A stretch of DNA of 63,875 bases, the filler included, from Nemertoderma westbladi (taxonomy: Eukaryota; Animalia; Xenacoelomorpha), in assembly GCA_032718475.1 (NCBI GenBank). It is 3 parts of 3 records of this genome, joined end to end, with 100 filler letters (N's around TTAATTAATTAA, not from the genome) between each part and the next. Parts side by side here need not be neighbours in the genome. Positions count along the whole stretch, not along the records: positions 42,322 to 63,875 come from JAUCBJ010006068.1; 2 more parts are not named here. The stretch is one strand, 5' to 3'. Below the pieces are notes generated by a model, which was given only the letters and a program-made list of their open reading frames with translations, was not told the origin of the DNA and did not search any database. Position numbers and translations under genes: made by a program. Of the stretch, positions 6,446 to 61,746 are shown piece after piece (the stretch's first letter is position 1; every line of letters begins with the position of its first letter).

Positions 6446-6508
6446 GAATTTGACAGGACCCGTACGAGTCAGGTAAGTGAACCCTGACTACATGTCCAAT
6501 TCAGTGAT

Positions 6509-12727: not shown

Positions 12728-12962
12728 GGTTAAACAATCTTACAATACCGCGGTCGGTTTGGTTAAACAATCTTACAATACCGCGGTCGGTTTGGTTAAA
12801 CAATCTTACAATACCGCGGTCGGTTTGGTTAAACAATCTTACAATACCGCGGTCGGTTTGGTTAAACAATCTTACAATACCACGGTCGGTTTGGTTAAAC
12901 AATCTTACAATACCGCGGTCGGTTTGGATAAACAATCTTACAATACCGCGGTCTGTTTGGTT
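12728..12962 (+). repeat. 33-bp tandem repeat x7 (GGTTAAACAATCTTACAATACCGCGGTCGGTTT)
   Basis: Head-to-tail, near-identical units without spacers. Confidence 0.97.
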
Positions 12963-31549: not shown

Positions 31550-32019
31550 CGTAAACCGACGACACAAAACCGAAATATATCATTGTTTCATTATATTAAA
31601 CTACGGTTGCAGTGATAGCTCACCCTAATAGTTACTTGGGAGGTACCGGTACACCATTGCCTGGAATGTAGTGTCATATTTCAGGTACACCTTAGATTGT
31701 TTGCAATCAAATACCCACGCGCAGATCTGATGCTAAAACATGAAACTATCGAACGCTTAATCTCCTCTATTTATTATCAAAATTCCTATGTTTTGCACAT
31801 TTGTAATGGCAGAAAATCACACGGAAAAGCGATATATAAACTTTTTAAATTGAAAGATTATAGCTAAAATATTAATTCTTTCACACCCGTAAAACAGAAA
31901 ACAGAGCATGAATTAAGCACGAGAGGATATGAAAATAAGGTGTACCTGAATTAAATAACTATATTGCCATGTCGACGTGAAATAAAGTAAACTAAATGAT
32001 GGGCTACGGGGTGTTATAC

Positions 32020-34117
32020 TATTTATAAATACTTGAAATAAAGTAACATTATTCTTTCAGTATGATTGTACCGTGCGGAGATATCACGAGACCGCTGATA
32101 AGTTGTCATAATAATATTACAAAATACATAATATGTTCTAGAATGGTTTGTATCCGATGGCAGAGGTACGATAATGAAAATGGTGTGAATGGGTGTCGCC
32201 TGAGTCCTGAGTGCCTTGTAAATAAATACCTTATACTGTATTACCTATACTGTAAGTAACTTGTAATAAATACCGTTGTTTATATTATCCTCCAAAAATT
32301 CCATCCCCCATTTTTTTTACTCTCCCCCAAACAAACTCTTTTAGAATTGTTAACTTTCTCAGGGAGACAACACATTTATTGAACTGATATTTGTTAATTT
32401 GTACGGTTATTTTGTACGAGTAACTATTATAACTAACTAACTAACTAACTAAGTAACTAACGTAATAATAGTTACGAATAGTTTAACAGTTCATTAGATA
32501 GTTGTCTCCCCTAAATCCCGTAATAAATTCTATATCATAATGTTAGCATAGTGTTATTTATTTCTTACGCAAATTGTGTTATATTGTACGGAAATTTGTA
32601 GCATTCTTGAAATCGTCAAGTTGTATTAATTCTACAGTATAATATTAGCTACCGCATTGTTACATAAATTATACTAAGAAAGATTCCCTATGAACATTAT
32701 GAAATAGGCCTACAATCATTCTAGAAAATATAAGTTTCCCGTTTCATTTAGCGCAATGTAGGCTACTATACTACACCTTGTCCTGGAATATAGTGTCGTT
32801 ATTCTGGTACAGGACCCCCCCCCCCCAAATTTTTCTTCAAATCTTAATGAGATTGCATGAAATTTGAAACAGAGATAGTTTCACTTCCCTCCTCCTTGTT
32901 GGGTGAGCCAGAATTTTTATTTTCGCTTTCATTCTTTAGCTACAAACGTTTGAAAAAAGGGTCTCCATCAATATTACACCAGTTACACCATAGTTATTCT
33001 TCAAAACTTTTAGTGATTTTTTGGTACTATTGGAAAGCTGACCATGCAAGGATTCCAAATATGTACTAATATTTGAATTTGGTTGCGAAATAGCTGAGAT
33101 ATGGGTATTCGAAATTTGCAATGTATTTCCTTCCGCTGCAGGCCATTTATTCCTTTTAATAAATACACAATGTTCTAGAACATTCTCATAAGTAGCTTCA
33201 TCTCATAAGTAGTTTGGCAACAATGCAATGCCTAAATGGTAATACTAGTATATGGATATTCATACATAATAAAAATGTATTTATTATCCCTTTTGATGGA
33301 TTTCAATATTTTTGGTGTTATCACCATATTTTGCACCCACTTCCGAAAATAATAGAGATGTTTCGTTAGATTTTCATTTATTCTATTGAATTCAGAACCG
33401 CCATAAACCTGTAAAATGCAGAAATAGGTTGTGACATTCAATTGAACTATTGGATGGCTTTTCAAAATTTCGTGTTTGCACCAAATTTTGCACCCAGGAT
33501 CGAAAAATACAAGTGTGATGTATGGTGCAACTCATATATTCCATAAAAATCATCACCCTGAAAAACTCTTTTACGCAAAAAGCAGATTCACACAATCATT
33601 TTACAATATTGACATATTAAAATTTTTGTTCTAGCACCAAAATTTGGCACCCGCCTAAACAAAGAAGTTTGAAATTTCTAGCACATTTTATATGTATTCC
33701 ATCACATTGCGAACACCAAAAAACCGATGTAATTCAAAAATAGAGGTGTTACAAATCATATACCATGAAAAGTAATTTTCCAAAAACGTCTCATAAAAAG
33801 TGTCAAAAAAGGTGCTATAACTCGAAAAATCATCAATATTTTTAAAATCGTTTTCTAGGAAGACAATAGATTCTTAAGAAAAGTCATAAAATTTCAGATT
33901 CCCAACTGTGTTTGTTTCAGAGCTACAGTATATAACAAAAAATCCACGGTGGGATTATATTGACCCCCCCCCCCCCCGTATTTAATAGGGTTAGTAAGTA
34001 ATATGTATATTCTTACTGAAAGAAATGTTATATAAATTATAGACAAGTACAGTCGACTATGTTCGTTACCTTATGCCTCTAAGGCTTTCGATAGAATCAA
34101 TCACGATGTTATTTTTG
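32020..34117 (+). repeat. Copy 2 (uninterrupted) of the 2.1-kb local duplication
   Basis: Reads CATATTTTGCACCCACTTCC across the site where copy 1 carries the Gypsy fragment. Confidence 0.93.
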
Positions 34118-38426: not shown

Positions 38427-39346
38427 TTACATCCATTTAGGTGCCTTAACGAAGGCAACTGAACAACTCCCAGCCATTGAACAAGGCGATCCCACTAATT
38501 CAATTACAACCAACACCTGTCTACCAGATTTGCTTAGTTGTAACGCAGACTTCGGTATAAATAAGGTTAACTGGGGGCCGACTGCTGACCAATACCGACC
38601 TAATACTTTGCCATTGAGAATTGCAATGCCTTTATTCCACCCACTCATGTCTAAGAAGGTATCTTCCATGTCACTTTCATTAATAAAGAACTCATTACGG
38701 TATATGAAGGGAGTGTTGGTTTCCAAATCATAACCTCGATGAATAGATTTCTCAAAAACCCATTTTGAGATGTATTTCAGAAATCCCTGAGAAGCAATTA
38801 TTTGATTAATATGGTTTTTGAATACAAGTGGCTCAAACCCAAGTCGATATATGTCCCAATTCTCTAAAGGTTTCCCATTTAATTCTGCACTTCCTATTCC
38901 CTTTCCTTCGTTTAATGCTTTACCATAACAGATCCGCCCCATGTTCTCAACTAGGATGTCTAGTCTAGTTAAACCGGCGGGTACAGAGATGTTGACTGGT
39001 TTATTCCTGTAGGAGAAACCGAACGATTGTTTATCAATAATGATGTAGGCAATATCCCTGAGGTTGTTGATAGTTAAAGTTTGTTTTTTGTTTATATTTG
39101 TGATATTGGTTCGGTACAGTAGGAATCCATAGTTGAGGTTGAGTTCTTCGAATGATCGCAGGTGTGAATTTCTAGCAGCACGACTGTGAGGCCACAGTAT
39201 ATTCAACATGTCAGTCAGTGAGCCAATTGGCAACAACTTTATAATTCCATAAGAATTCTTTTTAGTTGGAGGAGGAACTGGGATTGGTAATGGTGTATAT
39301 TTGGCTACTTCATTGCGGATCGCATAATATTTGGGTGTTGGATCAC
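38427..39346 (-). CDS. GLB1: Beta-galactosidase (GH35), last exon
   Basis: CAG acceptor then (G)DPTPKY, LDILVENMGRICYG, DTFLDMSGWNKG, LGRYWSAVGPQLTLFIP. Phase matches the previous exon. Confidence 0.92.
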
Positions 39347-39522
39347 CTGTGCGAAGGTAATGACAATTAAACAGCTATCTTGTTTCTTTATAAAAAAAAA
39401 ACTATTGCTACTAACTTTCAACTTGACCAATTATTGCATTTTTCTCGCATAATATAATACCTCACCCCGCAAAATTAGAAAAATATTTTTTCATAGTATT
39501 CTTGGTATCCAATACTAATAAT

Positions 39523-39909
39523 ACACGAAGTGGGGACTTCGCGCAGCACGAAGTTGGCAGAGCCTTAGCGAATTGACACTGTTAGGGGGTAGGTCAATTT
39601 ATGCAAATAGTCACGTTGGCCCTCTAGCGGCAGACTGGAGAACTGCAGATGGATTCGCCTCCTTTGAAAGTCACAGCTAATGGTCTAATACATATCTGCC
39701 AAGTTTCAGCTTAAACGGATTAAAAGCAAAGAAATGGGAGGGCATTTAATGTTTAGACATGTGGCCCTCTAGCGGGAGACCATTGCACTGATGGCGTCTG
39801 AAAGTCTCTCAAAAATCTCAACTTTTGCTCATATTGATACCTACAAATTTTCAACTTTGCAGCTTTAAATCCGACAAAGTTATTAGCATGTCAAAATCGT
39901 AACGACGAC

Positions 39910-39951
<42 letters not shown>

Positions 39952-40050
39952 AACGACGACGACGACGACGACAACTATTTGCATAAATTGACCCACCCCC
40001 TAACAGTGTCAATTCGCTAAGGCTCCGCCAACTTCGTGGCTCGCCCCACA
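39523..40050. mobile_element. Intronic Helentron/HINE-like element with subterminal inverted repeats and (GAC)n microsatellite
   Basis: 39548-39611 mirrors 39974-40038. Central GCCCTCTAGCGG repeats and (ACG)n at 39902-39972. Confidence 0.7.
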
Positions 40051-40988
40051 ATATTGATATTGTGCATAAAATGTCACGCAAAGCACCCAAACTAGCCTTT
40101 CAAAACTAGCTATGGAATTGTTCAAGCCAACCTATAATCTTTCAAATTAAATATCCCATTTCGAGAGATGCATAGGTGTAAATATGGGTAGCACTTCACT
40201 ATTGTTTTTAAACGTCACATCTCAAACTCCATTAATAATAGAAACAAATACTTAATGCGTTAGCGGTTATAGACAATGACACCGTATTTCTAATTTCACC
40301 CTATAAATGCTATTTTCATTGGTCAGATAGCTAAGCGAGGGTTGGCCATTTGGAAACGATCAGAAAATCATAATAAAGTTCCAACAGCACCTCATATTTA
40401 ATTATACTGTTTCCATGGCAATATTATTGTAAACAAATTTAAAGATCAAATATTTTGATAGTGTGGGCTTTTATCAAATTTATTTACCTACCAAATGTTA
40501 AGATGAATTGGAGTTGAAATGATAAAGCAACTACAATAGATTTCGTTCAAAAATGGAAAACACGAGGAAGCACGTCACGGTGTGTTGAATGAACCCTTGC
40601 TATGCGAGTTTCGGTCTATTACACCTCCTGTGTAGCGCGTTAAGCAGTTCACAATGACTCCGTACAATTATATCGAACATTAATCAGTAGGTGCATATCC
40701 TACACTATATCTAACAGCTGACCTATCGGCTTGATGTATCCAACAACAAACTCATCGAACAAAATCATAATTAAAAATAATATTATTAACAGAAACCATT
40801 GTCGTTAAGATTGACTGGGAGCGTGCAAAATTGTAAATGTATACCCTGGTATGATGGAAACAACGAATTATAAATTCTAGACATTTCAACATATCAATAT
40901 CAACAAACCCCAATAAGGATTCCACTGGTAGAGAGCAGAAATCCGGCCTGCGTTAGGAGTTTCATTTGGTATTTGGCTATTAACCAAC

Positions 40989-41271
40989 CTGCTTCATTCA
41001 GTGGTGCATCATAATCATATGAGGTTGTAACAGGTTGGTAATCGGTTCCAGAGATGTCTGCACCATTGCTCAGTTCGAAGTTGGTGCCTCCATGGAACAT
41101 ATATATGTTTACAGAAGCATTAATTTGGAGCATAGCAGCGAGGTTTCGCACTGTGTCTGCAATAGAGACTCTGGAGTGACCTCCATTACCCCAGTAATCA
41201 AACCATCCTGTATAATACTCGCTATTCACTAAGGGTCCATTTGGTTCGACCTCCCGCATATTAGCAAAAGC
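40989..41271 (-). CDS. GLB1: Beta-galactosidase exon with catalytic nucleophile
   Basis: [45 protein letters not shown] boundaries, 283 bp. Confidence 0.95.
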
Positions 41272-41560
41272 CTGGAACATTATAAAGTTCAAATCTTTGT
41301 CACAAGATAAATTTCAAGATTATTGAATATAATATAAAGATTGGTCTGAGTTGGAATAATCAAAGGATTAAATTAAATATAAATTGACAATTCTAGGCCT
41401 GTTTCTAGGAATGTTAGTTAGTAATATACACATGAATAGGATCAACCTTCATTTACAAACATAGTACAATAAAATGGAAGGAAATTTGTATTTGGCACCA
41501 TGTAACGTTGGATTCCAGTGCCGCAGTTTTCTATACAATAAAAATATATAGGAAATTAAC

Positions 41561-41755
41561 CTTAGAGACATCATCAGAAGTTCCAAAATCGATAGTTGAG
41601 TAAAGTTCTGGTAAAGTTCCACATTTAATAAGATTTACCGAGAATCCATCAGTTGTAAATAATACAATATCTTCTCCCAAGTGTTTCCTTGTTAAAGTTG
41701 TCAAGTATTTAAGATAAACTTTGTCACAACCATAAGAGCCATATTCATTCTCAAC
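41561..41755 (-). CDS. GLB1: Beta-galactosidase exon with acid/base glutamate
   Basis: VENEYGSY..YL..L....LG...LFTTDG...CGTL...YSTIDFG. AG/GT boundaries, 195 bp. Confidence 0.93.
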
Positions 41756-42121
41756 CTTAGAAAAGTTTTTGATATTTTAAAGAGACTCAGAACAGTCCCT
41801 CAGTCGAGCCACACAGTGTCTCAGTCTGCATTGTACATACTATATACTACACTATATATTTACGGGTCCTGCTGACCACTGCTATCAAGAACTGAACTGC
41901 CTTTGTGAGAACTTGTTCGATTGCAGCCGATGAGAGGAAACATGGTGGTCATCCATTGACATTTCTGAAGTGACCGCCAAAAGACCCTGGAATGGGTTAT
42001 CATGCTGATAAACTGGGGATTTTCATGAGGCGGGGATGAGGTATAGGCAAGGCAGGCATGTATGGATGTAAATTTGTATGTATATATGACTATAATATAT
42101 TAATACTATTAATATACAAAC

Positions 42122-42221
42122 TTGAACCATAATAATAGGTCCTCCATTGTGGTATAGTAGGGGAGCGATCTTTGGTAGCAGAATGTTGAACCAGCTGGTA
42201 ACATACTCCAGATATACTGCA
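42122..42221 (-). CDS. GLB1: Beta-galactosidase exon, 5'-truncated by the assembly gap
   Basis: YLEYVTSWFNILLPKIAPLLYHNGGPIIMVQ followed by a GT donor. Confidence 0.9.
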
Positions 42222-42320
42222 NNNNNNNNNNNNNNNNNNNNNNNNNNNNNNNNNNNNNNNNNNNNTTAATTAATTAANNNNNNNNNNNNNNNNNNNNNNN
42301 NNNNNNNNNNNNNNNNNNNN
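42222..42320. other. Assembly gap with artificial TTAATTAATTAA linker
   Basis: N run with spacer. Confidence 0.97.
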
Positions 42321-42513
42321 NATAGTAGGCCATGGCACTACCCTTATAATCACTACATACTGTACTGTAGTTTTACTTGTACATACGGAACCTGCTATGT
42401 TTGTTTATCTGAAAAAAAAAAGATGGGCATGGCTGTAAACATTACGCGGCGCAGACAGCAGCTGCAACTCCATTGGACATCCGTTAAAAACAGTAAGGGA
42501 AAGGATCAGGTTA

Positions 42514-43883
42514 TGTTCGCGGTATTTCAACTTTTCTTAACGCGAGTTGAATATTTTTTGGATTTATTTACAATGATTATTCCGATATCACTACTGGGTG
42601 CGGGAACATGGGTTTTGGGCACACTCGATGGACTGGGGGCGATTTCTGGGCGGATATTGGGGCGACTTACGGGGTACGGGACTCATTTCATGTATTTAAG
42701 GGCCAGGGGTGGGAGGCAAAGTTAAGCAGTATTCAGGTTTGCCTAATTACTATTAGGCCTAGCCAACTTCCTGCTGCCTATAGAGGTGGATTTGGTAACT
42801 CGCTAGGTCTAAAGGACAAGGACTGCCCTTACCGGTCCCTGGCCAACAGCAGTTATTACGAGCCTGAAAAGGACATCGGAAAGTCTGCTGCTTGTGTCAG
42901 GGATTTGCGACGGGAACTGACGACAGACCCCTAGCCAAGCTGTACTGGTCCCTGACCGATCCCTTCGGGGTTCGGGAAGGGTGGGACGGACACGCGAATG
43001 GGTCGACTGACTAATGGGGGAAGGGTTCAACGAGGACTGCCTTCCTGAAGTGGGTTCCACGACCGGCGTTAGTACGAGCCTGAATAAGGACTCGGAAAAC
43101 CACCAACCGTTGGGGCTCACGACGGGCTGACAGACCCCCTTGCCAAGCCGTACTGGTTCCTGACCGATCCCTTCGGGGTTTGGGAAGGGTGGGACGGACA
43201 CGCAACGGGGTGTAAAGACAAAGGACTGGACTCTACTGGCCTACCGACTGTTCGGAGCAGCTTCTCGGCTGCCGAAGCGACTACGAGCCTGAATAAGGAC
43301 TCCCCTGCGATGAACCGACGGACCCCTATCCAAGCCGTACTGGTTCCTGGTTCCTGATGACCGATCCCTTCGGGGTTTGGGAAGGGTGGTACGGACACGC
43401 AAACAGGTCCACCGACATGACAGACCCCTAGCCAAGCCGTACTGGTTAGTGATGATCGATCCCTTCGGGGTTTGGGAAGGGTGGGACGGACACGCAACAG
43501 GGTCGACCGACACCGACACTACGGTACCGAGACTAGGACCGGGGGAAAATTGGGGAACATTAGTTAGGCTAAAATCTGATCGAACAGTGGGTAATTAAAT
43601 AATGTACCGTAGGGATTTATATTGTCGTGTTATATTATTGTGAATATTTGGTGTATATTGGTTTGGGGAAGCCCAACTTATTCTCAATCAAGATTCAACT
43701 GTAGGGAAGTTACATTAAAGAGTATATCCAACCAATGAAACTTTTCTCAACTGCAATCTTGCATTTAAGAACGTATTCCTTCTCCACTACCAATATCCGG
43801 TGACTGGCCGGGATTCCGTGGTCTGAAAAGTTCCGCCTCCAGCATCGGCGTTTTCCCCCATGGTGTCGGGAATAACGGCAACA
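42514..43883 (+). repeat. 5' LTR (1370 bp)
   Basis: Direct repeat of 53867-55250, differing by scattered substitutions, a 7-bp duplication and a 21-bp deletion. Confidence 0.97.
43654..43719 (+). promoter_or_regulatory. Putative LTR TATA-like box, transcription start near 43677, and poly(A) signal
   Basis: TATATT at 43654 and ATTAAA at 43714-43719. The TSS is inferred from spacing only. Confidence 0.45.
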
Positions 43884-43885
43884 AA

Positions 43886-43897
43886 ATTGAGAATAAG
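43886..43897 (+). promoter_or_regulatory. Primer-binding site position, complementary to LTR 43677-43688 (candidate self-priming site)
   Basis: ATTGAGAATAAG lies 2 nt after the LTR and is the exact reverse complement of CTTATTCTCAAT. It does not start with TGG. Confidence 0.7.
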
Positions 43898-44090
43898 ATG
43901 CGGCCAACTTCGACTGGTGGAAGTTGGGAATCCTACAATACTCTTCAAATTCTCTCCGTGCTTACCCAGCACCAACTACAAGGAAACTCTGGTATTTGAG
44001 TTAAGACAAAGCTGTGGTTTAATCAATCGACAAACTCGATCTAATAAACTCGTAGTCGGCAGATCACATATAGAGAGTCGTTAACAGGGA

Positions 44091-44282
44091 ATGGAAGTAT
44101 CGATCACACCCATTGATATAATCCAAGTTGAGCCAGGAATCTGGCACGTCGAAGTTGAAGTACAAGGAACGAACGTCGGACGATTCAGGATTACCGTTCG
44201 GGTAGTCCAAGCTGAGTACGAGACCTACGAAGAACTGTTTTACAACATCGCATATCTAGCTATCAACGAGGCGCTAGAATGA
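44091..44282 (+). CDS. 63-aa upstream ORF overlapping the gag start (ATGA)
   Basis: Stop TGA 44280-44282 overlaps gag ATG 44279-44281. The sequence has a protein-like beta-strand then helix pattern. Confidence 0.55.
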   Translation: MEVSITPIDIIQVEPGIWHVEVEVQGTNVGRFRITVRVVQAEYETYEELFYNIAYLAINEALE

Positions 44283-47200
44283 CGACGAACAACGTCTCCG
44301 ATACCGATGAGATGGACCACCACACAGACTCGGAAGCCGACGAGGTACCGAACGTAAAGAACATGACCCGTCGACTAGGCGCTCTCAAGGGCGGAGTCAC
44401 TCGAGCGTATCAACATATAGAGAAACAACTCAAGGGAGTCGAAACCCCCCTCAACGAGATACAAACTCAGCTACAGAATATCCGAAGTATCTTACAACAA
44501 TATGAGAGGATGATACAGGCGTATCAAGAACTCATCCCCGCCACCGATCAAGTAAACTACCCTAGACTAGAAGAACACGTTGTACATCTAGATGAGTTCC
44601 GCAAACAACACCGGAGGACCCTCAGCCTCGTGAGAGGTTACGAGGAGCAGTACTATAAGAGAGCTGAAAGAACAGACGCAGAATCAGTGCGAACCTCCAG
44701 CACCAGAACAGCAATTCATCGAAAGAGAACGGGGTCCTCGAGGCACCAGCACTCCAGCGCTAGGAGCGAGATGTCCGGTTCAGCACGCAGCTCTCAAGGG
44801 GGTCAGCCACTCCGAGATCAGCTACGAGAACAGAGGGCATTGGCCCTCAAAGCTCGGATGGAAGATGAATATGTTCAACTGCGAGTCGAGCAAGATGTAT
44901 TAGCAGCCGAAATGCAAAAACGAGAGGCCAAACAACAGGCCGAACAACGTAGACGAGAGGCCGAACAACAGGCCGAACAACGTAGACGAGAGGCCGAATG
45001 ACAGGCCGAACAACGTGAACGAGAAGCGGAACAGGAGGCTGAACAACGTAAACGAGAGGCCGAACAGGAGGCCGAACAACGTAAACTGGAGGCAGAAATG
45101 CGTAAACAACATGCCAAGGTCCAAGCGATTCTCATCCATAAAAAGAATGCGGATATTGCGAAACTCGCGGAATACGAAGCCGAACTCATAGAACGTGATC
45201 TTCAACTATATGAGGACTGGGAAAGGGGTATAGAACAGAACTATGAACCAATCCCAGTCCCGGAATTAGAGAAGTCATTTACACCACCGGCGGCGAAACC
45301 TCCGAAGCCCGAGTTCCCGCCAACCATACAGTCTACGTTATCGGCCCAAGCACCGGTATTCCATCCCCCACCGGTTACGCTTAAGAATGAGGAACCTTAT
45401 TTCCCAGCCAACCCCACGGTCCCGAGCGTTCCCAAGTACGAGCCTGAAAAGGACTCGGAACGGGACGCCACCCCTCGATCCAACAACCCGTTTACATCCA
45501 CACCACAAATCCGTAACCGCATCATCATTAAAACCCCACCTCTCATCGATCCATCGTGCATGGGAGAGAGTGCCAATAACTATAACCCTCCTAGTCATTC
45601 CAGTTCAGATGACGTCGGCATTATCCGGGCATTGGAAAACCGCCTGGCCATGTCCAAGATGGAGATCCGCACCTTCGAAGGAGACCCCGTCGATTACCTC
45701 AGATTCAAGAAACGGTTCTTCGCTCAGATTGGGTCAACGGATATAGCCGACGCACAAAAACTGGTATATTTATCCCAATACCTTGGCGACAAACCACGCC
45801 GAATCATTGCATATTTTGAGGGAGGAGCTCATGAAGCATATTATGATGCATGGAAAACTCTAGACAAAAGATACAGAAATACCGGGACTATAATTAATAA
45901 AACTCTCGAGAAACTGATACAGGATGCGGGATCCCTAGGGGACCCACAGAATATCCAGGAGTTCTCGGATTCCATGAAAGATGCATACTACACTCTAAAG
46001 CCATTAAATAAGGAGGAACAAGTAAACAACATTCTAAACCTCCGACAGATTGCCCGAAAGTTCCCCGGATGGCTACAAAGTAAGTGGGCGTATAAATGCG
46101 TAGATCTCCGACGCAGACACCCAGATCGAGATCCCAGTTTCCTCGAAATGTCGGCATTCCTGGATGATATCTCCGAAGCCATGAATGACTCGATGTTCTC
46201 CAAACAAAGTCTCACCAAGTTAGATGGAATAGAAAACAACTCCAGGAGCAGGACACCCACTCAGAAACCGAGATTCCGTCCCCCTCCGGTGAGTACGATG
46301 GCTATCACCATGGACGAGGATTCCGACGACGAGGACTACGAGGAACCGACATCACCCGAGGAATGGGCGTGTTATCTTGCGAATTGGGCACCCGAAAGGG
46401 AAGGCACCACAAACTCCCTTCTCTGTCTCTTCTGCGGAGAGAAACATAAGGTGGAATTCTGCAGAAAGTTCCAGTTTGCCAAACTCGTCCCACGCTTCGA
46501 GGCGATAATGAAACACCGAGGATGCTTCCGGTGTCTTGGAACAGGTCACTATGTTCGGGATTGCGACCAAAGATCGTGCTGCGCGGTCTGTAATGACCTA
46601 CGTCATCACACACTCCTCCACATCCCCGCGAACTTTGACTTTACCACCCTCCCCTTTCGGATCGAAGCCAAACGAAGAGGAGAAACGAACCACGTCTCTA
46701 AAGGAACCCGGACGATTCAATGGAGGGAAACCAACCCGTTTAAGACCTTCACTGATGTATCACAAGTGACAAATATCTCGGCCACGATCAACCTTATAAA
46801 TTGCCGTTACATGGTCTTCGCCAAAGTAATCCCAGTAAGAATTCAAGGGGTCGGGAAATCATTGACAACGCTCGCGTTCCTTGATAACGGGTCGGACGGA
46901 ACCATCATCGACCGGGATTTCCTCGAACAACTCGGCCTAGACTACAAACCTTGCAAACGGCCCATACAAACTATCACCGAGCATAGAGAAGTAGAGTCCG
47001 GGGAGGTGCAGCTCCAGATGGAAGGAGTCATGAAGGGCTACGAGACGGTTAAGCTGACGATCAAGAATGCCTTGGTACACACCGATCTCCGAGTGCGGTT
47101 CCGACAATCAGCTGAATACGCCCCTCTCATACAGTTAGACCGGGAAGATGTAGACCTAAGGTGTCCACCGTTGGACGTGAACCACATCACCCTATTGATC

Positions 47201-50200
47201 GGACTCGACACACCGGAATTACACATACCCACAGGAGACGTCGCCCGATCTGTAAAGCAGGATGACGGCTTTTATGCCGAACGTACGATCATGGGATGGA
47301 CACTCTGCGGCATCAAGGAGGAGACTACAGACACCTATACATACCTCCCTAAATGTCAGATTAAAGAGAATGCAACCTCCGTGGGTTATTGTTCAGCTAC
47401 AGACCTGGACGAGGATTTATTCCTTGAGACCGAGAAAACCCAGCAGGAGATGACCAAATACTTTAATCTAGAGACCCAAGAGTTTGCTGAAAAGGACGAG
47501 AACCCGTCCGAGGAAGAACAATATTGTATTGATGTCCTTGATCAGGCCAAGTTCAAAGACGGACATTGGTGTTCACCCATGCTATGGAAAGACCCAGATA
47601 AACCGATGGCGAATAATGCCAACATGGCCCTTAGGCGGCTTAAAGGAATCCTACGCCTGTTGAATGAACAACCCGAGATAAAGGAGAAATATAATAATGT
47701 AATCAAAGGATATCTAGAAGATGGATTGGTGGAAATGGTACCCCGGAATGAACTGCAAGGGGGTAGACGGACATATTATCTCCCAACCCACTATGTGGTA
47801 GAAGCCCGGAAGGGCGGTAAAATCCGAGCAGTCAATGATGCTGCTGCTATGTATCAAGGCGAATCCCTGAACAGCCAACTTTATACAGGGCCCAACATAT
47901 ACAGTACATTTATCGGCGTGTTGATCAGGTTCAGGGAAAACCGGATAGCATTCACATGCGACATCAAAGCGATGTTTCACCAGGTCCGAACGCTACCAAG
48001 AGACTCAGACTGTCTGCGTATATTATGGACGGATAAAACATTAACTCCACAGGAGATCAGTCAACTCACATTGAAGGATGTGGATGTAATGCGCATGATC
48101 GTCAGGATCTTCGGCGCTAAGGACTCGCCAGTAGCATGTAGTGAGTGACATGCTGAAGAAAACAGCGACTATGTGCGAAAATGAGTTCCCTCCAACAGTC
48201 ATAGAAACCATCCGACGATGCTTCTACGTGGACGACGGATGCGCCAGTGCCGATAATGTTGACGAGGCATATCAGCTAGCGATGGGGATGGTGGAATGTT
48301 TAAAGAGAGGAGGTTTCCCTCTCGTGAAGTTCAGATCCCACGACAAAAAACTTATGGAAAAGTTTCCGGTGGAAATCCGACTGGACAACAATAAAATGTA
48401 TTCCGAGGATGTGGATCACCATGTACTCGGCATTGAAATGGGACATAGAATTGGATGAATTCATCTTCAAATATAACACCCTACCCAAGCCCATGACGAA
48501 AAGGGGATGTTTGTCTATAAAAAGTGCAATATTCGACCCACTAAACTTCATATCTCCGGTAACCTTGGCCGGAATGAATTTGATCAAGGAAATGTGGATA
48601 GAAGGACTGGGATGGGATGAAGAACTCCCCCCACACCTCAGTGTCAAATGGAGAAAGTGGACGGAACAACTCGAACATCTACATCTTATGCGGATCCCTC
48701 GACCGTTCTTCCTCGATAAACTACCCACCGATATTTTCCAGCTCCACACTTTCTCGGATGCTTCGAATACCGGAATCGGCGTAGTCACTTTCCTAAGAAG
48801 ACTAAGTCAAGATGGAAACGGCGACACGAGCTTCTTATTTTCTAAAGCTAAGACAGTATCCGGGGAATTCGTAGCAACGATTCCGAGACTTGAGCTACAG
48901 GCCGCAGTTTGGGCAGTGAGACAGAACCGCATGGTCATGCGGAACCTACGAATCCCCATCGAATCGCAACATTTCTGGGTCAATTCGAGTATCATTCTCT
49001 ACTACCTCCACTCACCATCACGGCGATACACCACGTTCGTAGCGAACCGAGCCATGGAGATAAAACAGTGCACCGGCCGAGAACAGTGGCACCATGTAAA
49101 TGGAAAAGAAAACCCAGCGGACTTATTGAGCAGAGGCACCACCCCACGACAACTCGGTAAAAGTAAACTCTGGCTCACCGGTCCGGAATTCCTACAGCAA
49201 CCACAATTAACCTGGAGTACCCGATTTGATCCCGAACTCGATAGCGGAAAATACTCCGAAGACGACAAGGAGATCCGCAAAGTCCATAGAAGCGCCACAG
49301 TGGAGATCTATAGTTGTCTGACCGAGCCTGCAAAGGACTCGGGCAGGCACTATAACGTCGCGACGATCACGCAACCAGCGGCGTCTTTACAACTATTGAA
49401 CGAGCGAACTTCATCAATGAGACGTCTCATCCACCACGTCATAACCCTTCGCAACTTCCTACGGTGGAAAGACAACAAACCGACAGTTCAACGAAGTATA
49501 CAAGAACTCATCATTGGGGAGAAATGTATTGTTAGATATGTCCAGAAAGTAAGTTTCCCCGACGAGTGGGAACAACTCAGTGCAGGCAAGACCTTGAAAC
49601 CGGACAGTCCAGTCTACCAATTGAGACCAATGATGGGAGAGGACGGACTGATTCGACTGAATACCCGGATGGCAAACGCCCCGGTTGAATACGAGGTCAA
49701 ATACCCAGCGCTTCTGCCCGGAACATCAACACTAGCCAAGCTATTAATCCAACAGTGTCACGAGGAAAACCATCACGCGGGACAGAACTGGATTATAGCT
49801 AATATACGGCAAAGATATTGGATCACCCACATCCAGCCACTGATCCGGAAAGTGTTAAAACATTGTTTTCCCTGCAGAAGATATCTAGCGCCACCACTCA
49901 CACAAAGGATGGCCGACTTACCAGCCACGAGACTGCAGTCCGATTCCCCGCCATTCTACGTAACCGGAGTAGACTGTTTCGGACCATTCACAGTCATCGA
50001 GCGACGATCCAACATCAAATGCTGGGGAGCCATCTTTACATGCCTTAGGTCTAGGGCAATCTACCTAGACATCGTGGTGAACCTTACACAACACGCATTT
50101 ATCAACGCCCTGCGTCGGTTCGTGGCGAACAATGGGACATGTCGTCATATGTACTCCGATAATGGTACAAACTTTGTGGGAGGAGAAAGAGAACTTAGAG

Positions 50201-50313
50201 AGGCGATCGAGGGATGGTTTACCGAGGACACCGCATCCCAAGTCTGGAGGGAACACCATATACAGTGGCACTTCCAAACACCCTTAGCACCCCATACGAG
50301 CGGGGTATGGGAG
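44279..50313 (+). pseudogene. BEL/Pao Gag-Pol polyprotein (one stop at 44999, two frameshifts near 48145 and 48430, integrase truncated)
   Basis: Gag FEGDPVDYLRF; knuckles CLFCGEKHKVEFC and CFRCLGTGHYVRDC; PR FLDNGSDGT; RT CDIKAMFHQV and FYVDDG; RH LHTFSDAS, TIPRLELQAA, ENPADLLSRG; IN GVDCFGP, SDNGTNFVG, SGVWE. Confidence 0.96.
44921..45095 (+). repeat. 33-bp coding tandem repeat in gag (EAEQQAEQRRR), ~5 units
   Basis: Read directly. Confidence 0.9.
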
Positions 50314-51166
50314 GTTTTATGTTTCTCAGTCGCGTTATTCTGGTGGGACCGTTGCGTGGATTTTGGGGCGTAGGCGGTGTAACTAGTCCAGCTATAGATC
50401 CCAGAATGTTGAGTAACCCCATCCCACATGACTTCGTCGACTGAGCTTTATGTTGCTGGGAGTGTTATTCTGGTGGGTCCCTGGTGCATTCCACGTGACT
50501 TCACTTCCAGCGTCTTCATTGTCCGTTACGTGTGCAGTTTGGGGCGTAGGCGGTGTAACTAGCCCAGCTGTAGATCCCAGATTGCCGCGTAACACCCCTT
50601 CAACAACGAAAATTTCCCAAAGAAGATGATTGAATGTAGTTGGAAATGATGAAAACAAACAGACAACCCTACTATAAACTGAATGATGACGCGTATGATG
50701 ATGAAAATGTAATGATGCGCACCCTGGTGCTGCGCTTATAACAATGATGAAAGCCGGGGGGCTATAACCCCAATATGATGAAGTGGAAATAAATGAAATG
50801 TGTAATAAATGGTGTAATAAATGATGAAATGGTGGAAATAAATGATGAAATGTGTTGAAATAAATGAAATGAAATGAGAAATAAATGAGAAATGAAAAAA
50901 GACAAAAAAATGTATAAAATGTAGAAAGAAAAGAATCGGAAAAAAGAAGAGGACATAAAAAGTCAAAACTGGTTGGATATTAATGTATAGCTATAGTAAC
51001 TGTAAATGCTGAATGTATTAGCAATAAGATGGTAGAAGCCTATATAGCAATGTTATTTAATAAACTGAACTACAAATAAACTGAATTATTCTGCAGTCAC
51101 TATAGTATCAGACTTTCTGGATTTATAATTAACTGATCTAAATTTTCAACGGACATAATTGAAAAT

Positions 51167-53684
51167 ATGGACCCAAATCGCCAAATTATCGGCAAATTAC
51201 GTAATACGATAGATTTACTGGAATATCCACAACCTGGATCCCCTAACTTTGATATAAATTGGAACGCCCTGATAAATGAGAATGTGCGAGTCGTCAAATT
51301 CTCCGGGCGAGAGGGACCGGATTCCCGGAATCTACGAGCCCTCCGGTTGTCTGATGCTAGTACGAGACTGAAAAGAACTCGGAATGTAAAGGCAACCGGA
51401 GAGGATGAGTTGTCGTACTGGGAAACGTTCCGGCAAAGCGTCTACAAATCCCGATGTTTGATATACGACAACGAGGGAAACGCGACGCCCACCTCGAAAG
51501 CGATTACGTTGGTGCGATGTCAAAGTTTCGTCGATGACAAGAGTACGTACCTCGCCCACTGGGGAAACCTAGCGGAGTGTACGGCAACGCTGCGAGAGGA
51601 ACGTATATCAGTTATCCAGAATCGCGACGACCACCAGGAGAAGTACGGGACGAAAGAATACGGTCGATCCTTGGTCGTCGTCCTCGGAACCCTGGATGGT
51701 TTGGTGTTGGTATGTCGAATATTTCCGACACCCAGACAGGAGGTGCGGACAGCCGGAGCGATCTGGCTACTACCACCCGAGATCCAAAAGATCCTATTCG
51801 ACTTCGACATAGGGCCGGATATAAAGGCGGACGTCCGAAACGACTACGCGAACGCTCCTTTCGGAAGAGACTGTCGAGAAGATCTCAACGCCATTAGTCA
51901 TTGTGTCGACACCCAAACTCTATTAGCCTGGTTACGATCCGCCGAATTCCTGCGAGGATTCCGAGAAGTGAGACAGACGAAATCCAGCATCGGCTACCTC
52001 GCAGTGCTAAACGGCGGCATAGACTTTAAACCCCAGAAATTCCAGGACTATAATAAGATATATGGTGGATACCCGGGATTAGAAATAAAAAGTGAGCGAG
52101 AGAGTCGCTGGAAGGACGTTGAAAGAAAGTGGACGATCCACCACAAGTGGGAGAATCCGGACCGACGGAACTACATCTACGTCATTATGGAATCCTACAC
52201 AGTCGCTAAGTTCATATGTAAAACTCTCGATAGTCTCATTACTGCGGTTCCTAGATCCTTTATCGACTACGGGTGGAACGAGGTCATCAACCACGCGTTC
52301 AAAGAGGTCGAGAATATTACACCTGGAGAGACGAAAACGCTCACCGTCATCGCTTCCTGGGACGAGAATGGGCCGTTCGACATCCCTACGATTACCGATC
52401 TCCTCGGTGCGGAGGAACCACTGATTTCCTCGGAATCGCGTACGAACCGGCCGCCAAACGGGTCGCCTCGGCCAAACCTGCGACAGAAGCAGGCGTTTCC
52501 ACCCCACTTGGCTCCGGTAGCCCCGCGAGGGAGTTAGTCACTACCTTTGCGTTGAACGACTTCGGCGGCATATGTCAGAGGTTATCCCCATATCCGTTCC
52601 CGGGTGGCGAAGACTGGTCGTCGGAGATTCCGAGTACCAGCACCCAACGGACCCGCTCAGCGATACTGGTTGAAAAGGGTCCCAGCGCTGCGCCGACTCC
52701 CGAAGATCTCCTCGGAATCCCTCCATCGAAAACCCCGGCACCTCTTCGCCGACCAGCGGTGGCAACTACCCCCTCCATTCCACAGGATCCTATGCGACTT
52801 ACCCGATGGTACGCCGAGCAGACCGAATGGATCCACCGCCAGAAACGGTCATCCGAGATGAGACTGGCAGGACATAAAGAAGGTTATCGAAACGAGAACA
52901 TACTACGCCAAAGCACCGCTTTTCGCGGGCTACCGCCCACAGCGGATATTCCAAAAAGCGACTGACGACTCGAGTATTACGTCGGCGTCCCGATTCTGAT
53001 ATTCTTCGGCCGGGAGATCCAGTTAGCGGAGACTGTGGTTCGGAGCAGTGCCCACGCGGTAGAAGAAATCGAGTAACCGATTCGTGCCTCCAGCTCCTCG
53101 GGATACTGTATTGTCCCTATTGCACGACATCGGGACATGATGTTTCAGTTTGTCCAACCCTCTATAACCTCTGCACAACATGCGGTTTCCGTGGACATTC
53201 CACTAGCCCCCGCTGCAATATAAAGTGTCCCACGAAGGACGTTACCGCTATGGGAAATATGGTTATGTTCGAAACCTACGCAAACAGCCACATAAAGACC
53301 AAAGTACGGAAAAACGCCCGGAATATCGCGCAAGAGATGGCGTGCGGGTATTTTTCGTTCCCGGAGCGCCTCCATACGACAGCGACGCTACCATTCCATT
53401 ACGTGGATCTGTTGCTAAGCGCAGGATTATTCGGCCCATTCGAGATCCTTAGACGCTTATATTCGTATAAGGAAGAGTTTGGTAACGGAAAGTGGTTCTT
53501 AGAGGCACACAACACTGAGTTAGAAAGACGAACCGATATGATCCCGCTACCATCGAAAGGAAGAGCCGCCAGGAGACAAGCCGAAACGTTGCTCACGATG
53601 GATGTTGACGCTCCCCTACCAGCACTAGCGATCGACGAGAGTCGACGGGCGAAGAGGAGAAAGGCGTATCAGAGCAAGAAATAG
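51167..53684 (+). pseudogene. ORF3: DEDDy/DnaQ-type 3'-5' exonuclease-like domain, basic linker and two CCHC zinc knuckles (disrupted after codon 456)
   Basis: LPPEIQKILFD..IGPDIKAD, VDTQTL, SSIGYLA..GIDFKP and KWENP...IY match the spacing of WRN/EXD-type exonuclease domains. CPYCTTSGHDVSVC (53112-53153) and CTTCGFRGHSTSPRC (53172-53216) lie in the open frame 52878-53684. Confidence 0.7.
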
Positions 53685-53857
53685 AGGACCAGGATATTCC
53701 AGGAACATTTATATCGAACATTTATTTTTTATATATTTACATAAACTAACTCTAGGCCAAATTAATCAAGACTATGCAATATTAAAAATTTTGGGTTTTT
53801 TATATGGGAAATGACCTACGCAAACTCGATCTACCGATAGACCTCACGAAGGTCATT

Positions 53858-53865
53858 GGGGGGGA
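53858..53865 (+). promoter_or_regulatory. Polypurine tract
   Basis: GGGGGGGA one base before the 3' LTR TG. Confidence 0.85.
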
Positions 53866-53866
53866 C

Positions 53867-55250
53867 TGTTCGCGGTATTTCAACTTTTCTTAACGCGAGT
53901 TGAATATTTTTTGGATTTATTTAAAATGATTATTCCGATATCACTACTGGGTGCGGGAACATGGGTTTTGGGCACACTCGATGGACTGGGGGCGATTTAT
54001 GGGCGAATATTGGGGCGACTTACGGGGTACGGGACTCATTTCATGTATTTAAGGGCCAGGGGTGGGAGGCAAAGTTAAGCAGTATTCAGGTTTGCCTGAT
54101 TACTATTAGGCCTAGCCAACTTCCTGCTGCCTGTAGAGGTGGATTTGGTAACTCGCTAGGTCTAAAGGACAAGGACTGCCCTTAGCAGTCCCTGGCCAAC
54201 AGCAGTTATTACGAGCCTGAAAAGGACATCGGAAAGTCTGCTGCTTGTGTCAGGGATTTGCGATGGGAACCGACGACAGACCCCTAGCCAAGCCGTACTG
54301 GTTCCTGACCGATCCCTTCGGGGTTCGGGAAGGGTGGGATGGACACGCGAATGGGTCGACCGACTAACGGAGGAAGGGTTCGACGAGGACTGCCTTCCTG
54401 AAGTGGGTTCCACGACCGGCGTTAGTACGAGCCTGAATAAGGACTCGGAAAACCACCAACCGTTGGGGCTCACGACGGGCTGACAGACCCCCTTGCCAAG
54501 CCGTACTGGTTCCTGACCAATCCCTTCGGGGTTCGGGAAGGGTGGGACGGACACGCAACGGGGTCGAAAGACAAAGGACTGGACTCTACTGGCCTACCGA
54601 CTGTTCGGAGCAGCTTCTCGGCTGCCGAAGCGACTACGAGCCTGAATAAGGACTCGGAAAGCCTAGGTGGTTGGGTCCCTGCGATGAACCGACGGACCCC
54701 TAGCCAAGCCGTACTGGTTCCTGATGACCGATCCCTTCGGGGTTCGGGAAGGGTGGTACGGACACGCAAACGGGTCCACCGACATGACAGACCCCTAGCC
54801 AAGCCGTACTGGTTCCTGATGACTGATCCCTTCGGGGTTCGGGAAGGGTGGGACGGACACGCAACAGGGTCGACCGACACCGACACTACGGTACCGAGAC
54901 TAGGACCGGGGGAAAATTGGGGAACATTAGTTAGGCTAAAATCTGAGCGAACGGTGGGTAATTAAATAATGTACCATAGGGATTTATATTGTCGTGTTAT
55001 ATTATTGTGAATATTTGGTGTATATTGGTTTGGGGAAGCCCAACTTATTCTCAATCAAGATTCAACCGTAGGGAAGTTACATTAAAGAGTATATCCAACC
55101 AATGAAACTTTTCTCAACCGCAATCTTGCATTTAAGAACGTATTCCTTCTCCACTACCAATATCCGGTGACTGGCCGGGATTCCGTGGTCTGAAAAGTTC
55201 CGCCTCCAGCATCGGCGTTTTCCCCCATGGTGTCGGGAATAACGGCAACA
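53867..55250 (+). repeat. 3' LTR (1384 bp)
   Basis: Direct repeat of the 5' LTR, followed by TSD GGTTA. Confidence 0.97.
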
Positions 55251-56537
55251 GGTTACAGTGGCGAGTTAATCTAACCAAAAACACTAAACGATGTTCAGGA
55301 GCGCCGGTTGTCTGCTGTCGGAGTAGCATTTACAACCGTCAACCGTGCCTTATATATAGGTGTATTATAGTATTAGGAAGTAAACAATAAAATATGACAG
55401 GGGGATCTTATTTCCTTCCCTTATATTAATTTCACACAATCCCCCTAAATTCGTGGTTGTCAAACATTATAGTATAGGATTTAGGAGGTGGTGGACAGGT
55501 TATAGTATTAATAATATTGTGTGGGAGTATATAGTAAATGTTTTGTGTGATTTTAGTAGGTAAGTCAATAATCCGATTGATGCACAGCTGGCATCTTTTA
55601 GTATTTTGTGCAATAGCCTTTCAAAAAGGAACTGTTAATACAGTGAATATTGGCCACCAATATTTTGATAAAAAATACTTAGTGATGAAAATGAACGAAT
55701 TTTACGTAATTAATGTTAAATTCAAAATGCGATCATTTATATTAGAACACCGATCTAAGACGCCCTTTTACATTTTTATTATACCAGTCACATCATACAT
55801 ACTGTATTTCTGCTGTGTATGATCTAGAGTCCCGAATAGACGGGATTAATTTTTGGAAAAAAATCCACCCACAAAAATTCCCTTATTCTAGACAGACTAT
55901 TAATTTTTTCTAAAACGTTTGTTCTCATAATAATTTAGAGTGAAAGAAAACAAAAACCGTGTACCGAGTATACCACCGGTCAGGGTTTCTTTTTTCAAAA
56001 TGTTCACTGTGAAAAGTTTCTAAACGGTTAGAGAAAAAATTTAGAAAATCTAAATTTTGTTTATGAAACCAAAATAATTTGCTCAATTGCGAATGAATTG
56101 AGAAAGTGAAAAGTGGGCCATACACATTGGTGCTGTTTATTATTACTGCTTGTTTTCTACTTTATTCAAACATACGATGGTACATTCTGTAATCATAAAT
56201 ATCATCGAAATATTAAAAAATTAGGCCTACTACTGTATTTATTTAATACAGCTTTGGTAAACGAAAGCCATTTATTGGGAATGAATACTCCAACTGATTG
56301 GTGATGGTCACAGTTGAAAGGGACAACGAAAAAAAACATTTTGGATAAAATATGCGTTCAGAGTTTTTGTTGTTGAAATTGAATTAAATGCTTATACAGT
56401 ATTATTCTTGTTACATAAAGAAATGGAGGGAAATTTGATTCAAATTATGATCACGATGCTAAATTAACTTTTCTACTTCAGTATCATGTATTCTGAAGGC
56501 AGATTATTCGCAATTATATCATCATACTGTCATAATT

Positions 56538-59807: not shown

Positions 59808-60842
59808 TTAGCCAATAAGGAAGCTGTACGGGTAACCATGGTATTTTGATTTGAATATACTGAGTAGCAAACTGAAGAAGATCACGACGATCGCTATACC
59901 GGCGATCGTGAGAATTCGTCGTTTACCCGCGAAGGATTTATTGCCTGCCGAGCCGCTGGGAGTCTCATTGAGCAGGATGAGGCCCAAAGTGATGGCGACG
60001 TTGAGGACAATAACGATGTGTGTCTCCGCGATGAACTGGCTCTGGGAGCCCGTGTTGATGTAGTGCACCTGCCCGGTCCGCTGGTCGGGCATCGCGTACG
60101 GCGGGCCCCGGATATGGTTCCACATCTGTCCGCTGGTCATCACGAAGATCACGGCCAGACAGCCGACCCCCCAGACGGTTTTATTGTAGAGGAAGTCGAG
60201 ATTGTTTCGACGTAGGAACAGGAGCGCGGCTACGAGGCTGAACATGAGACTGAGGGCGATTGTTCCTGAGTAGTTTGGGGGTCGGAAGACCCGAATGTGA
60301 ACGTCTGTTCGCTCGCCGATCCACTTAGAGATCGCTTCCGCAGAGAAACCAACCCGCTGTAGATCCATATTGTCACCTTTCTTCATCTTCCCTTTTGGAG
60401 GGAAGTGGATAAACATTGGTGCGGAATTCAACTTCAAACTGTTGAAGATTTCCTGGCCTTCATCGAAGTCGACGAGTGCGAAGAATAGCTGCGAGTTGAA
60501 GAAGTTCGAGTATCGCCAGGAGTTGGCAACGATCTGGAATTCCTCGTGGGCAGAGCGACAGATCTGGCAGCCGCGTTTTGGGTTGAGCGCCGTCAGCATT
60601 ACGATAACCGAGTAGGGTTTCGGAGAGGTCTTTACGTATTGTTTAAACTTCTCGGAGTTTAACCGGATTACCGGTCGTTTAGCCGACATTTCCTCGAGGA
60701 CTCGGACTCTCTCCTCTACTGGGTTCACTACGGCGCTCGGGTCTTTCCTTGCCGAACTCCGTGCGAATAGATTCACACCAACCAAGACGATCAGGGATAA
60801 ACCCAATAATTTGGCTTTGGAGTACTGCAACATTGGTGACAT
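59808..60842 (-). CDS. TUSC3: Oligosaccharyltransferase OST3/OST6-family subunit (TUSC3/MAGT1 co-ortholog)
   Basis: Signal peptide, thioredoxin-like [39 protein letters not shown], four TM segments and C-terminal [13 protein letters not shown]. Intronless. Confidence 0.95.
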
Positions 60843-61746
60843 GTTCGTTGATTTGATAGAACGTGTACTGGTGTAGGCCTAAGCCGATCAATTAGGCCTA
60901 ACAGTATGAAATACAGACAGTTCGACTTAGAATTGGGGACGTTTCGTTGTCTTTCGATGTCCGGTATAATCCTACACCTACTGCTGTACTGCGCTGTAGG
61001 CCTACTGCTAATACAGTAATAATTCTGTCTATCTAGTGCTGTAATATTACACCGCACCGGCAGTGTGGCTTGAAACAGCGCTACAGCCTATGATGGGGTT
61101 GAGTCAGAGTCATGAATGTTTAATGTTTGTTAATATTAACTTGGCAAAGAAGGGGAAGTTTGTTCTCAAAATTAGCTTTATCGAATAAGGGAAAGGAGAC
61201 GGTTACAGATTGCAGTGGCACGTTATTCTAGCCAAAACAGGAGGCTTAAACCAATCTATAATATATTATTGTTACTACGATAATTACTTTCAGTTTGGTC
61301 TTTCTTTTGGTGTGCACGGGTTCCATAAGCATTATTATCTTTCTTATACAGTACCGGTACCCTAAACTATTAAACATTAAACAAACCACAGTCAATATAA
61401 CAAACAGGTTAGTTATAATTTTATTTTTGGGAGTAATCAGCTTTCATCAGTATTTAGCGAGCTTATAGTTTAGAAAGTTTTCATACAGTCTGACTTCTGA
61501 AGTTCATCTGTCTGGCGCAACGGGGCATAATGTAAAAACAAGCATTTCACTAATAGATAACTAGCTGGTGGAATTTAATAGTATTTGATTTGATACAAAT
61601 TTCAACATTTGTATACAGTAGGAGTAGGTCAATAAAATGTATAGGGCATACGCCGACAGATGGTCAGAGACCCACACCGTCTGTACCAGCCGCTAGAGGC
61701 CGACATAAATTTTTACTACCAGTTTAACGCAAACTTTATATGGGCC

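Follow-up and report, generated by a model that had tools for sequence, protein, structure and literature searches.

The locus described here raises two questions: how does a retrotransposon whose primer site pairs with its own terminal repeat start reverse transcription, and what reads the hairpins repeated along its predicted RNA? The window, i.e. the whole stretch of DNA analysed, comprises 63,875 nucleotides (nt) of the genome of Nemertoderma westbladi (Xenacoelomorpha; GCA_032718475.1), in three parts joined by filler letters, and the element occupies positions 42514-55250. A sequence-only reading had proposed that it is a self-priming BEL/Pao retrotransposon with its own RNA-hairpin code and a cognate RNA-binding accessory protein; the observations of that reading were partly confirmed and its interpretation was partly supported. 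The locus holds one defective member of a BEL/Pao-type long terminal repeat (LTR) retrotransposon family with many copies; what appears to be new is the combination of BEL/Pao-type proteins with a primer likely to be of Tf1 type and a repeated hairpin not described before. The account that best covers the data as a whole, to which we give an even chance, is that of a defective self-priming BEL/Pao copy whose hairpins are multi-copy tags, most likely for its own Gag.

Element identity and the primer-binding site

The LTR ends (TG..CA), a short target duplication and a polypurine tract were all present in 42514-55250, as expected of a BEL/Pao element, and the two LTRs were 97.6% identical (1330 matches, 33 mismatches and 2 indels over 1363 aligned letters). 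Pfam returned DUF1759 (E 4e-13), Peptidase_A17 (E 5e-38), an aspartic protease and Integrase_H2C2, in the BEL/Pao order of protease, reverse transcriptase (RT), RNase H and integrase (PR-RT-RH-IN). DUF1759 and peptidase A17 both exceeded their own Pfam cut-offs, and the motifs (three Gag knuckles, then YVDD, then those of integrase) came in the expected order. The Pol search recovered 347 relatives at E <= 1e-50, with PF05380 in all 120 of those listed; the closest, among the best 120 of the 347, were 36-39% identical, and no Pol relative was found in viral contigs. In a tree of 122 rows, which held these 120 relatives and two elements of the window without the named reference lineages (Pao, BEL, Tas, Suzu, Sinbad/Sailor, Dan, Flow), the nearest row was a nemertean (Lineus) protein with 41% identity and a support of 94. 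Contigs from four DNA runs of a single organism covered the internal region (30/30 bins in three runs and 28/30 in the fourth) with 1689 variant rows, and the family therefore has many diverged copies.

According to the International Committee on Taxonomy of Viruses (ICTV), members of the Belpaoviridae carry an 18-nt primer-binding site (PBS) for the 3' end of transfer RNA (tRNA)-Arg or tRNA-Gly; their LTRs measure 0.2-1.2 kb and their genomes 4.2-10 kb, and their third gene is env-like; BEL/Pao elements are metazoan and their replication is poorly understood (PMC8742986). The present element shares with them the LTRs, a knuckled gag, the PR-RT-RH-IN order, the polypurine tract and the slot for a third gene. 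It differs in having no tRNA-type site, LTRs of 1.37-1.38 kb, a total length of 12.7 kb and a third open reading frame (ORF3) that encodes zinc knuckles and has no env homology. Since a tRNA-type primer site is absent, we class it as a BEL/Pao-type variant and not as a typical member of the Belpaoviridae.

The claim of a non-tRNA PBS complementary to the LTR was borne out. The TGG start of a tRNA-type site was sought directly 3' of the 5' LTR and none was there; the site pairs with LTR positions 43678-43688 and not with a tRNA 3' end. In this copy the 12 nt of 43886-43897 pair without a mismatch with LTR 43677-43688, and a comparable 12-mer match arose in 1 of 2000 shuffled LTRs. Position 43897 was variable in 17% (run X1) and 30% (run X2) of depth and 43899 differed almost everywhere, so the pairing shared by the family is one of 11 nt, 43678-43688 with 43886-43896, and the 14/15 pairing of this copy was rejected as a family feature. 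In run X5, an LTR contig (depth 133) carries C>T at 43685, and the only contig that reaches the internal region's start (depth 27) reads, in its loose end, the LTR end, AA and the 11-nt site with A replacing G at 43889; together the two changes convert a C-G pair to U-A. The LTR-complementary 11-nt core and this compensatory pair support the proposed self-priming, and we consider it likely that the element primes reverse transcription from its own RNA.

Several points weigh against this assignment. The compensatory changes sit on two X5 contigs connected only by the run, and depth is an unreliable measure of copy number; a different X5 contig carries A>C at 43686, which disrupts a pair. The invariance of the 22 paired positions in X1 and X2 is weak evidence by itself, with about 26 variable places in 311, and the variants considered for the primer region are the 40 of 46 rows listed, in which neither the 43685 nor the 43889 change appeared for X1 or X2. 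Apart from these, an internal tRNA fragment may act as primer, and the RNA start, strand and expression of the element are predictions from DNA sequence.

In Tf1, as described in the part of the report available, the RNA's first 11 bases act as primer and are released by an RNase H cut (PMC7175516). A similar course may be envisaged here: the RNA would begin near 43678, its 5' end would fold onto the PBS and the RNase H of RT would free the primer. The spacing of a TATA-like box and an ATTAAA fits an RNA start predicted at the primer, and the copy of ATTAAA in the 3' LTR would terminate the RNA, AATAAA being absent from the LTR. The primer is contiguous, so that a primer split by an intron need not be invoked; two splice patterns were sought in the LTR and neither was present. 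Excerpts of earlier reports attribute self-priming to the Tf1/sushi group, Tj1, Tcn1 and copia TAR (PMC6317226, PMC4600332, PMC5341516, PMC3601003, PMC5443660). The element resembles Tf1, Tf2 and Tj1, the Tf1/sushi group of Ty3/gypsy and, as far as these excerpts go, the predicted plant Tcn1 and copia TAR in having an LTR stretch of about 11 nt complementary to the PBS. It differs from the Tf1 group in that its Pol is of BEL/Pao and not of Ty3/gypsy or copia type, and in that the RNA start and RNase H cut are predicted. No report of a self-priming BEL/Pao element was found in the open-licence literature searched, and the portions available of PMC6238403 and PMC3118150 hold no statement on the primer. 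If true, a self-primer of the Tf1 kind, backed by a compensatory change found in nature, would extend self-priming to a third LTR superfamily.

A subfamily seen in X2, X3 and X5 (43870-43896) has another LTR end, with an inverted repeat running across the LTR boundary into the PBS that could compete with the self-primer. A perfect 8-bp hairpin (43904-43927) lies immediately 3' of the PBS. Two further matches to TTATTCTCAAT, at 1795 and 2139, were set aside as part of an unrelated palindromic repeat.

Two families of repeated motifs

The existence of two repeat families, here called motifs A and B, was upheld; the hairpin of motif B is a supported prediction, and the structure proposed for motif A held only in part. 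In the LTRs the two alternate in a unit of 208 nt. Motif B is present in six LTR copies (three per LTR) and three internal ones, all nine on the sense strand, and the internal copies occupy two codon phases. Its exact pattern was matched five times as against none in 100 shuffles, and twice internally as against none in 300 shuffles. In the predicted fold a bulged A separates a stem of 4 bp from one of 3 bp, and a GNRA-type loop that exchanges among GAAA, GCAA and GAAUA closes the hairpin. Folding z-scores ranged from -1.6 to -6.1 at all six loci, and at three of the six AGUA/GAA surrounds the stem, which we take, from the motif consensus, to be a loop E pattern.

The flanks of motif B provide the strongest sign of selection on structure. 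Between U3 (unique 3') units, identity is 96-100% in the cores and 40-63% in the flanks, the random value being 46%, and each 5' flank nevertheless pairs best with its own 3' flank: across four flank lengths the true pairing ranked among the best 1-4 of 720 permutations. We picture motif B, as a prediction, in two tiers: a short, bulged stem capped by a GNRA-type loop and, beneath it, a longer stem in which the sequence is free and the pairing kept.

Motif A comprises eight copies of about 87 nt, four per LTR, with 88-93% identity between copies, each terminating in a C(UUCG)G hairpin. The motif is conserved and its fold is a prediction. Ribozyme readings of it (hammerhead, hepatitis delta virus-like and twister, judged by eye against their known consensus) were rejected, as the topologies do not fit and Rfam was negative. 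Tandem G-A pairs occur in copies 1 and 2 without a bulge; in copies 3 and 4 (54717-54765 and 54812-54860) a three-base bulge stands beside them, a layout that is presumably kink-turn-like.

With an RNA start at the primer, the LTR repeats would fall in U3 and be present once in the RNA, as three B and four A copies in the 3' untranslated region (UTR); with the three B copies in gag, pol and ORF3, each RNA would bear ten motifs. We regard an RNA-level function of these hairpins as fairly probable. It is opposed by the absence of two-sided changes in the motif B core (0/7 pairs) and of covariation in motif A (0/24 predicted pairs), by the folding z-scores of motif A (-2.05 to +0.52, with one copy no better than shuffles) and by the flank permutation test, which passes on the minus strand too (3-13 of 720), with weaker energies. 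The windows used for the folding scores had been picked manually; of 37 blind 120-nt LTR windows on the plus strand, only 1 reached z < -2.

The exact pattern of motif B had no match in viral or prokaryote sequence collections. Rfam matched neither motif and gave, over 13 kb, one chance hit outside the repeats (E 2.9, below the gathering score), and a viroid review was all that came up when the literature was searched for LTR motifs of this kind. Phages of the MS2 type carry dispersed packaging stem-loops, and lambda boxB is a hairpin with a GNRA or five-base loop. By description only, motif B resembles the former in being a short repeated stem-loop with a bulged A and the latter in the interchange of a GNRA tetraloop with a five-base loop; unlike both, the element is an animal retrotransposon with a putative protein partner. 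As a small, well-defined RNA signal spread over coding and non-coding parts, motif B offers a handle on how elements select their RNA.

A hairpin at 52518-52536, at the stop of the first ORF3 piece, resembles motif B in structure only and was set aside as possibly due to chance, the window containing six further hits outside the family. The sole strongly stable blind window (54080-54199, z -5.8) lies in the 3' LTR just before the array and has its counterpart at about 42727-42846.

ORF3, the upstream reading frame and the candidate readers

ORF3 is a family-wide accessory gene with two zinc knuckles, of the forms CX2CX4HX4C (at 53112) and CX2CX4HX5C (at 53172). It was covered in all four runs and one X5 contig bridges its first and last pieces (ORF3a and ORF3c). 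Other copies differ at the overlap of ORF3a with the middle piece, so the frame breaks look like lesions of this copy. Its expression is probably from a spliced or internally started message of its own; an acceptor-like pattern, TTCTGCAG, lies upstream of it. Six AATAAA lie on the sense strand in the A-rich tract 50788-50885 between pol and ORF3; full-length RNA would need to read through them. The spacer also holds two copies of a 65-nt repeat (50356-50420 and 50532-50596); of these, the second has a stable plus-strand fold (z -4.3) and matches the head of motif A in 12 of 14 letters. In the contigs this repeat forms a tandem array with far greater depth in X5, and it may or may not be native to the element.

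The sequence-only reading had given ORF3 an exonuclease-like fold along with its knuckles; the knuckles were recovered and the fold was not supported. ORF3a had no significant match in Pfam, only matches at E >= 0.01 to unknown families in PHROGs and a single chance hit (E = 1) among PDB sequences. No relative was present among 5.8 billion proteins (250-798 amino acids), 1.84 billion representatives and phage records, and atlas hits (MTaX1 and restriction-enzyme clusters) scored 0.82-0.89, below the useful level. ORF3c gave no hit in longer proteins nor in PDB. Two metagenome loci returned by the ORF3a search were false hits, the one examined being a phage helicase (L002).

Profiles of PF01612 were built from 12, 28 and 70 bacterial domains, of which the first detected WRN, EXD2, mut-7, Rrp6, Egalitarian (E 1.6e-5) and EXD1 (E 0.004) in PDB as controls. 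With the 28- and 70-sequence profiles, the score of ORF3a was reached by 63 and 38 of 500 shuffles, and its glocal z was 1.1-1.6 with three profiles. HHalign aligned ORF3 with the first strands and helix of a WRN-type exonuclease profile, at a probability of 0.1%, in the same register as the one set by eye; of the catalytic motifs D-x-E, D and Y-x3-D, the first two acids (ExoI) are absent in this non-significant register. AlphaFold without an alignment gave unusable models, with a predicted local distance difference test (pLDDT) of 31 and 34, and a fold search with the second listed no exonuclease (best Z 4.5), a result that does not exclude the fold.

DEDDy exonuclease ORF3s occur in the bdelloid LTR elements Juno and Vesta, according to the part of the report available (PMC5408684), and an exonuclease in ORF3, if true, would thus be of a known kind. 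The element resembles Juno and Vesta in having a non-env ORF3 3' of pol. The Juno and Vesta ORF3s are described there as strongly homologous with intact catalytic residues (PMC5408684), whereas for the present ORF3, which is longer and has two zinc knuckles at its end, no homology was detectable.

A 63-amino-acid upstream ORF (uORF) whose stop overlaps the gag start (AUGA) was found as claimed, and it probably tunes gag translation, which it may couple or damp. Its start context is strong and three other ATGs lie upstream. An equally long ORF ending at the gag start arose in 21 of 5000 shuffled leaders, in a test picked after the uORF had been seen. Calicivirus termination-reinitiation, through a termination upstream ribosomal binding site (TURBS), uses a UGGGA motif upstream of the stop-start overlap; no such motif lies within 150 nt upstream of the overlap at 44279. 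Searches including Pfam and PHROGs found no homologue of the uORF, and no link between it and the hairpins was found.

As to what reads the hairpins, Gag is the simplest candidate, followed by a host protein or RNA-RNA docking and then by ORF3. The three-knuckle nucleocapsid of Gag, or else a host protein, might read the tags for particle assembly or RNA transport, which is the weakest step of the proposed course; we put Gag forward tentatively, as a hypothetical binder. Eight of the ten motifs lie 3' of the ORF3 splice acceptor, if splicing is as predicted, and would be on the ORF3 message as well, which makes a poor fit to an export switch. With only two of the ten specific to unspliced RNA, a packaging role is weakened too.

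Less probable than Gag is that the hairpins act without any protein of the element, either through a host reader (in localisation, stability or translation) or by docking of the GNRA-type loops with a receptor, perhaps in motif A, that folds the 3' UTR. Such a role would suit the alternation of B and A in the 208-nt unit, the GNRA-type loop with AGUA/GAA around the stem at three of six loci, presumably loop E, and the two A copies able to form what we take to be a kink-turn-like bulge. It sits poorly with the three B copies of the coding regions, which have no adjacent A, with the lack of an Rfam match for either motif and with the near-invariant primary sequence of the B core, which suggests sequence-specific reading. 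Host adaptors do transport retrotransposon RNAs via hairpins, as the available part of PMC13186709 relates.

The cognate accessory protein of the sequence-only reading was not supported. A Rev-like role in which ORF3 or the uORF product binds hairpins A and B for export, localisation or protection is unlikely, although ORF3 accompanies the family, has two knuckles and a basic tail and contains one B copy, and although the HHalign register agrees with the one set by eye. Neither ORF3 nor the uORF has a relative in the searches above, the exonuclease similarity is at shuffle level, and eight of the ten motifs would share ORF3's own message. No related family with the hairpins or ORF3 was found in metagenome, viral or prokaryote collections, and the window's second BEL/Pao element carries neither motif, its extra ORFs being unrelated to ORF3.

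Rev and its response element (RRE) form a protein-hairpin pair in HIV, and the RRE marks only unspliced RNA. The element resembles this pair, and the Egalitarian-BicD system, in having hairpin signals in a retroelement RNA with a possible protein reader. Rev/RRE has one RRE in an intron, whereas the element has ten motifs, eight of them shared with the predicted ORF3 message. Egalitarian offers a precedent for an exonuclease homology domain on hairpins; in the excerpt available, it is a host adaptor in which this domain acts with three other domain types (PMC13186709). The analogy to ORF3 is therefore loose: Egalitarian is a host protein, and ORF3 is encoded by the element with no similarity found between them. 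An RNA code owned by the element, in which a loop E/GNRA hairpin and the 87-nt motif are read by a catalytically dead exonuclease-like, two-knuckle accessory protein for export, localisation or shielding, is improbable; if true, a retrotransposon would own a pair of the Rev/RRE or Egalitarian kind.

Equally improbable is that the repeats are enhancer duplications in U3 acting at the DNA level, or template-switch products, with incidental hairpins and with coding copies that are stray or DNA-binding sites: LTR elements often have tandem duplications in U3, the B core forms an inverted repeat, and the missing two-sided changes, the flank test on both strands and the mostly unstable blind windows would all agree, but the nine B copies are all sense, their loops are RNA-type on that strand only, and unrelated flanks keep their own-partner pairing, those of the three coding regions included.

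Lesions, features and neighbourhood of the copy

The copy has an in-frame stop at 44999-45001, and its frame breaks twice, near 48135-48148 and again in 48328-48458; the integrase stops short near 50312 with its C-terminal part missing, and ORF3 is split over three frames. Its features are listed in Table 1.

Table 1. Features of the BEL/Pao-type element, in positions of the window
Feature	Position	Strand	Basis or remark
Left target-site duplication, GGTTA	42509..42513	.	sequence
5' LTR, 1370 nt, TG..CA ends	42514..43883	+	LTR comparison
5' LTR repeat array, B1 A1 B2 A2 B3 A3 A4	42859..43511	+	B3 shortened, with a 21-nt gap against the 3' LTR
TATA-like TATATT, putative promoter	43654..43659	+	about 24 nt 5' of the self-primer
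Predicted 11-nt self-primer and 5' end of the RNA	43678..43688	+	complementarity to PBS
ATTAAA, candidate poly(A) signal	43714..43719	+	26 nt 3' of the primer; function putative
PBS, complementary to 43678-43688	43886..43896	+	2 nt (AA) after the 5' LTR
uORF, 63 amino acids	44091..44282	+	TGA overlaps gag ATG at 44279 (AUGA)
gag, N-terminal part, 33-nt coiled-coil repeats	44279..45001	+	closed by in-frame stop 44999-45001
gag-pol continuation: DUF1759, Cys/His knuckles (46424, 46523, 46580), aspartic protease (46880), RT start	45002..48148	+	
Motif B copy in gag, GAAA loop	45439..45457	+	
RT piece carrying YVDD (48225)	48135..48458	+	second frame break within 48328-48458
RT end, Pao peptidase A17/RNase H, integrase	48328..50373	+	Pfam and motifs
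Motif B copy in pol, GCAA loop	49323..49341	+	
pol-ORF3 spacer	50313..51166	+	two 65-nt repeat copies, A-rich tract, acceptor-like site
Splice-acceptor-like TTCTGCAG	51089-51096	+	sequence pattern; splicing predicted
ORF3a, 456 amino acids from ATG	51167..52537	+	
Motif B variant in ORF3	51363..51381	+	codon phase unlike the gag and pol copies
ORF3b, Pro/Ser/Thr-rich	52255..52965	+	overlapping frame
ORF3c, two zinc knuckles and basic C-terminus	52878..53684	+	
Polypurine tract, G7	53858..53864	+	sequence; ends 2 nt 5' of the 3' LTR
3' LTR, 1384 nt	53867..55250	+	LTR comparison
3' LTR repeat array: B at 54212, 54428, 54637; A at 54276, 54483, 54692, 54787	54212..54874	+	predicted 3' UTR array
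Right target-site duplication, GGTTA	55251..55255	.	sequence

The flanking host genes are beta-galactosidase exons (38427-42265, minus strand) and an intronless OST3/OST6 gene (59808-60878, minus strand). The element may have inserted within a beta-galactosidase intron; the upstream exons that this would call for were sought and not found.

A second, decayed BEL/Pao element with DUF1759 and an integrase zinc domain lies at 4997-13056, with no RT-length ORF listed; a long LTR pair was sought for it and none was found. Its long extra ORFs downstream (11013-12245 and 12445-13056) have no similarity to ORF3, and the first had no Pfam or PHROGs match. ORFs on the minus strand at 14303-15232 (309 amino acids) and 30314-31579 (421 amino acids) likewise had no significant Pfam match. 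Besides, the window contains a 1-kb palindromic repeat, 83% self-complementary and resembling a miniature inverted-repeat transposable element (1453-2477), a gypsy-type element with long repeats (23307-27349 and 32020-34117) and RT fragments of the long interspersed nuclear element type (20711-21337 and 27247-28200).

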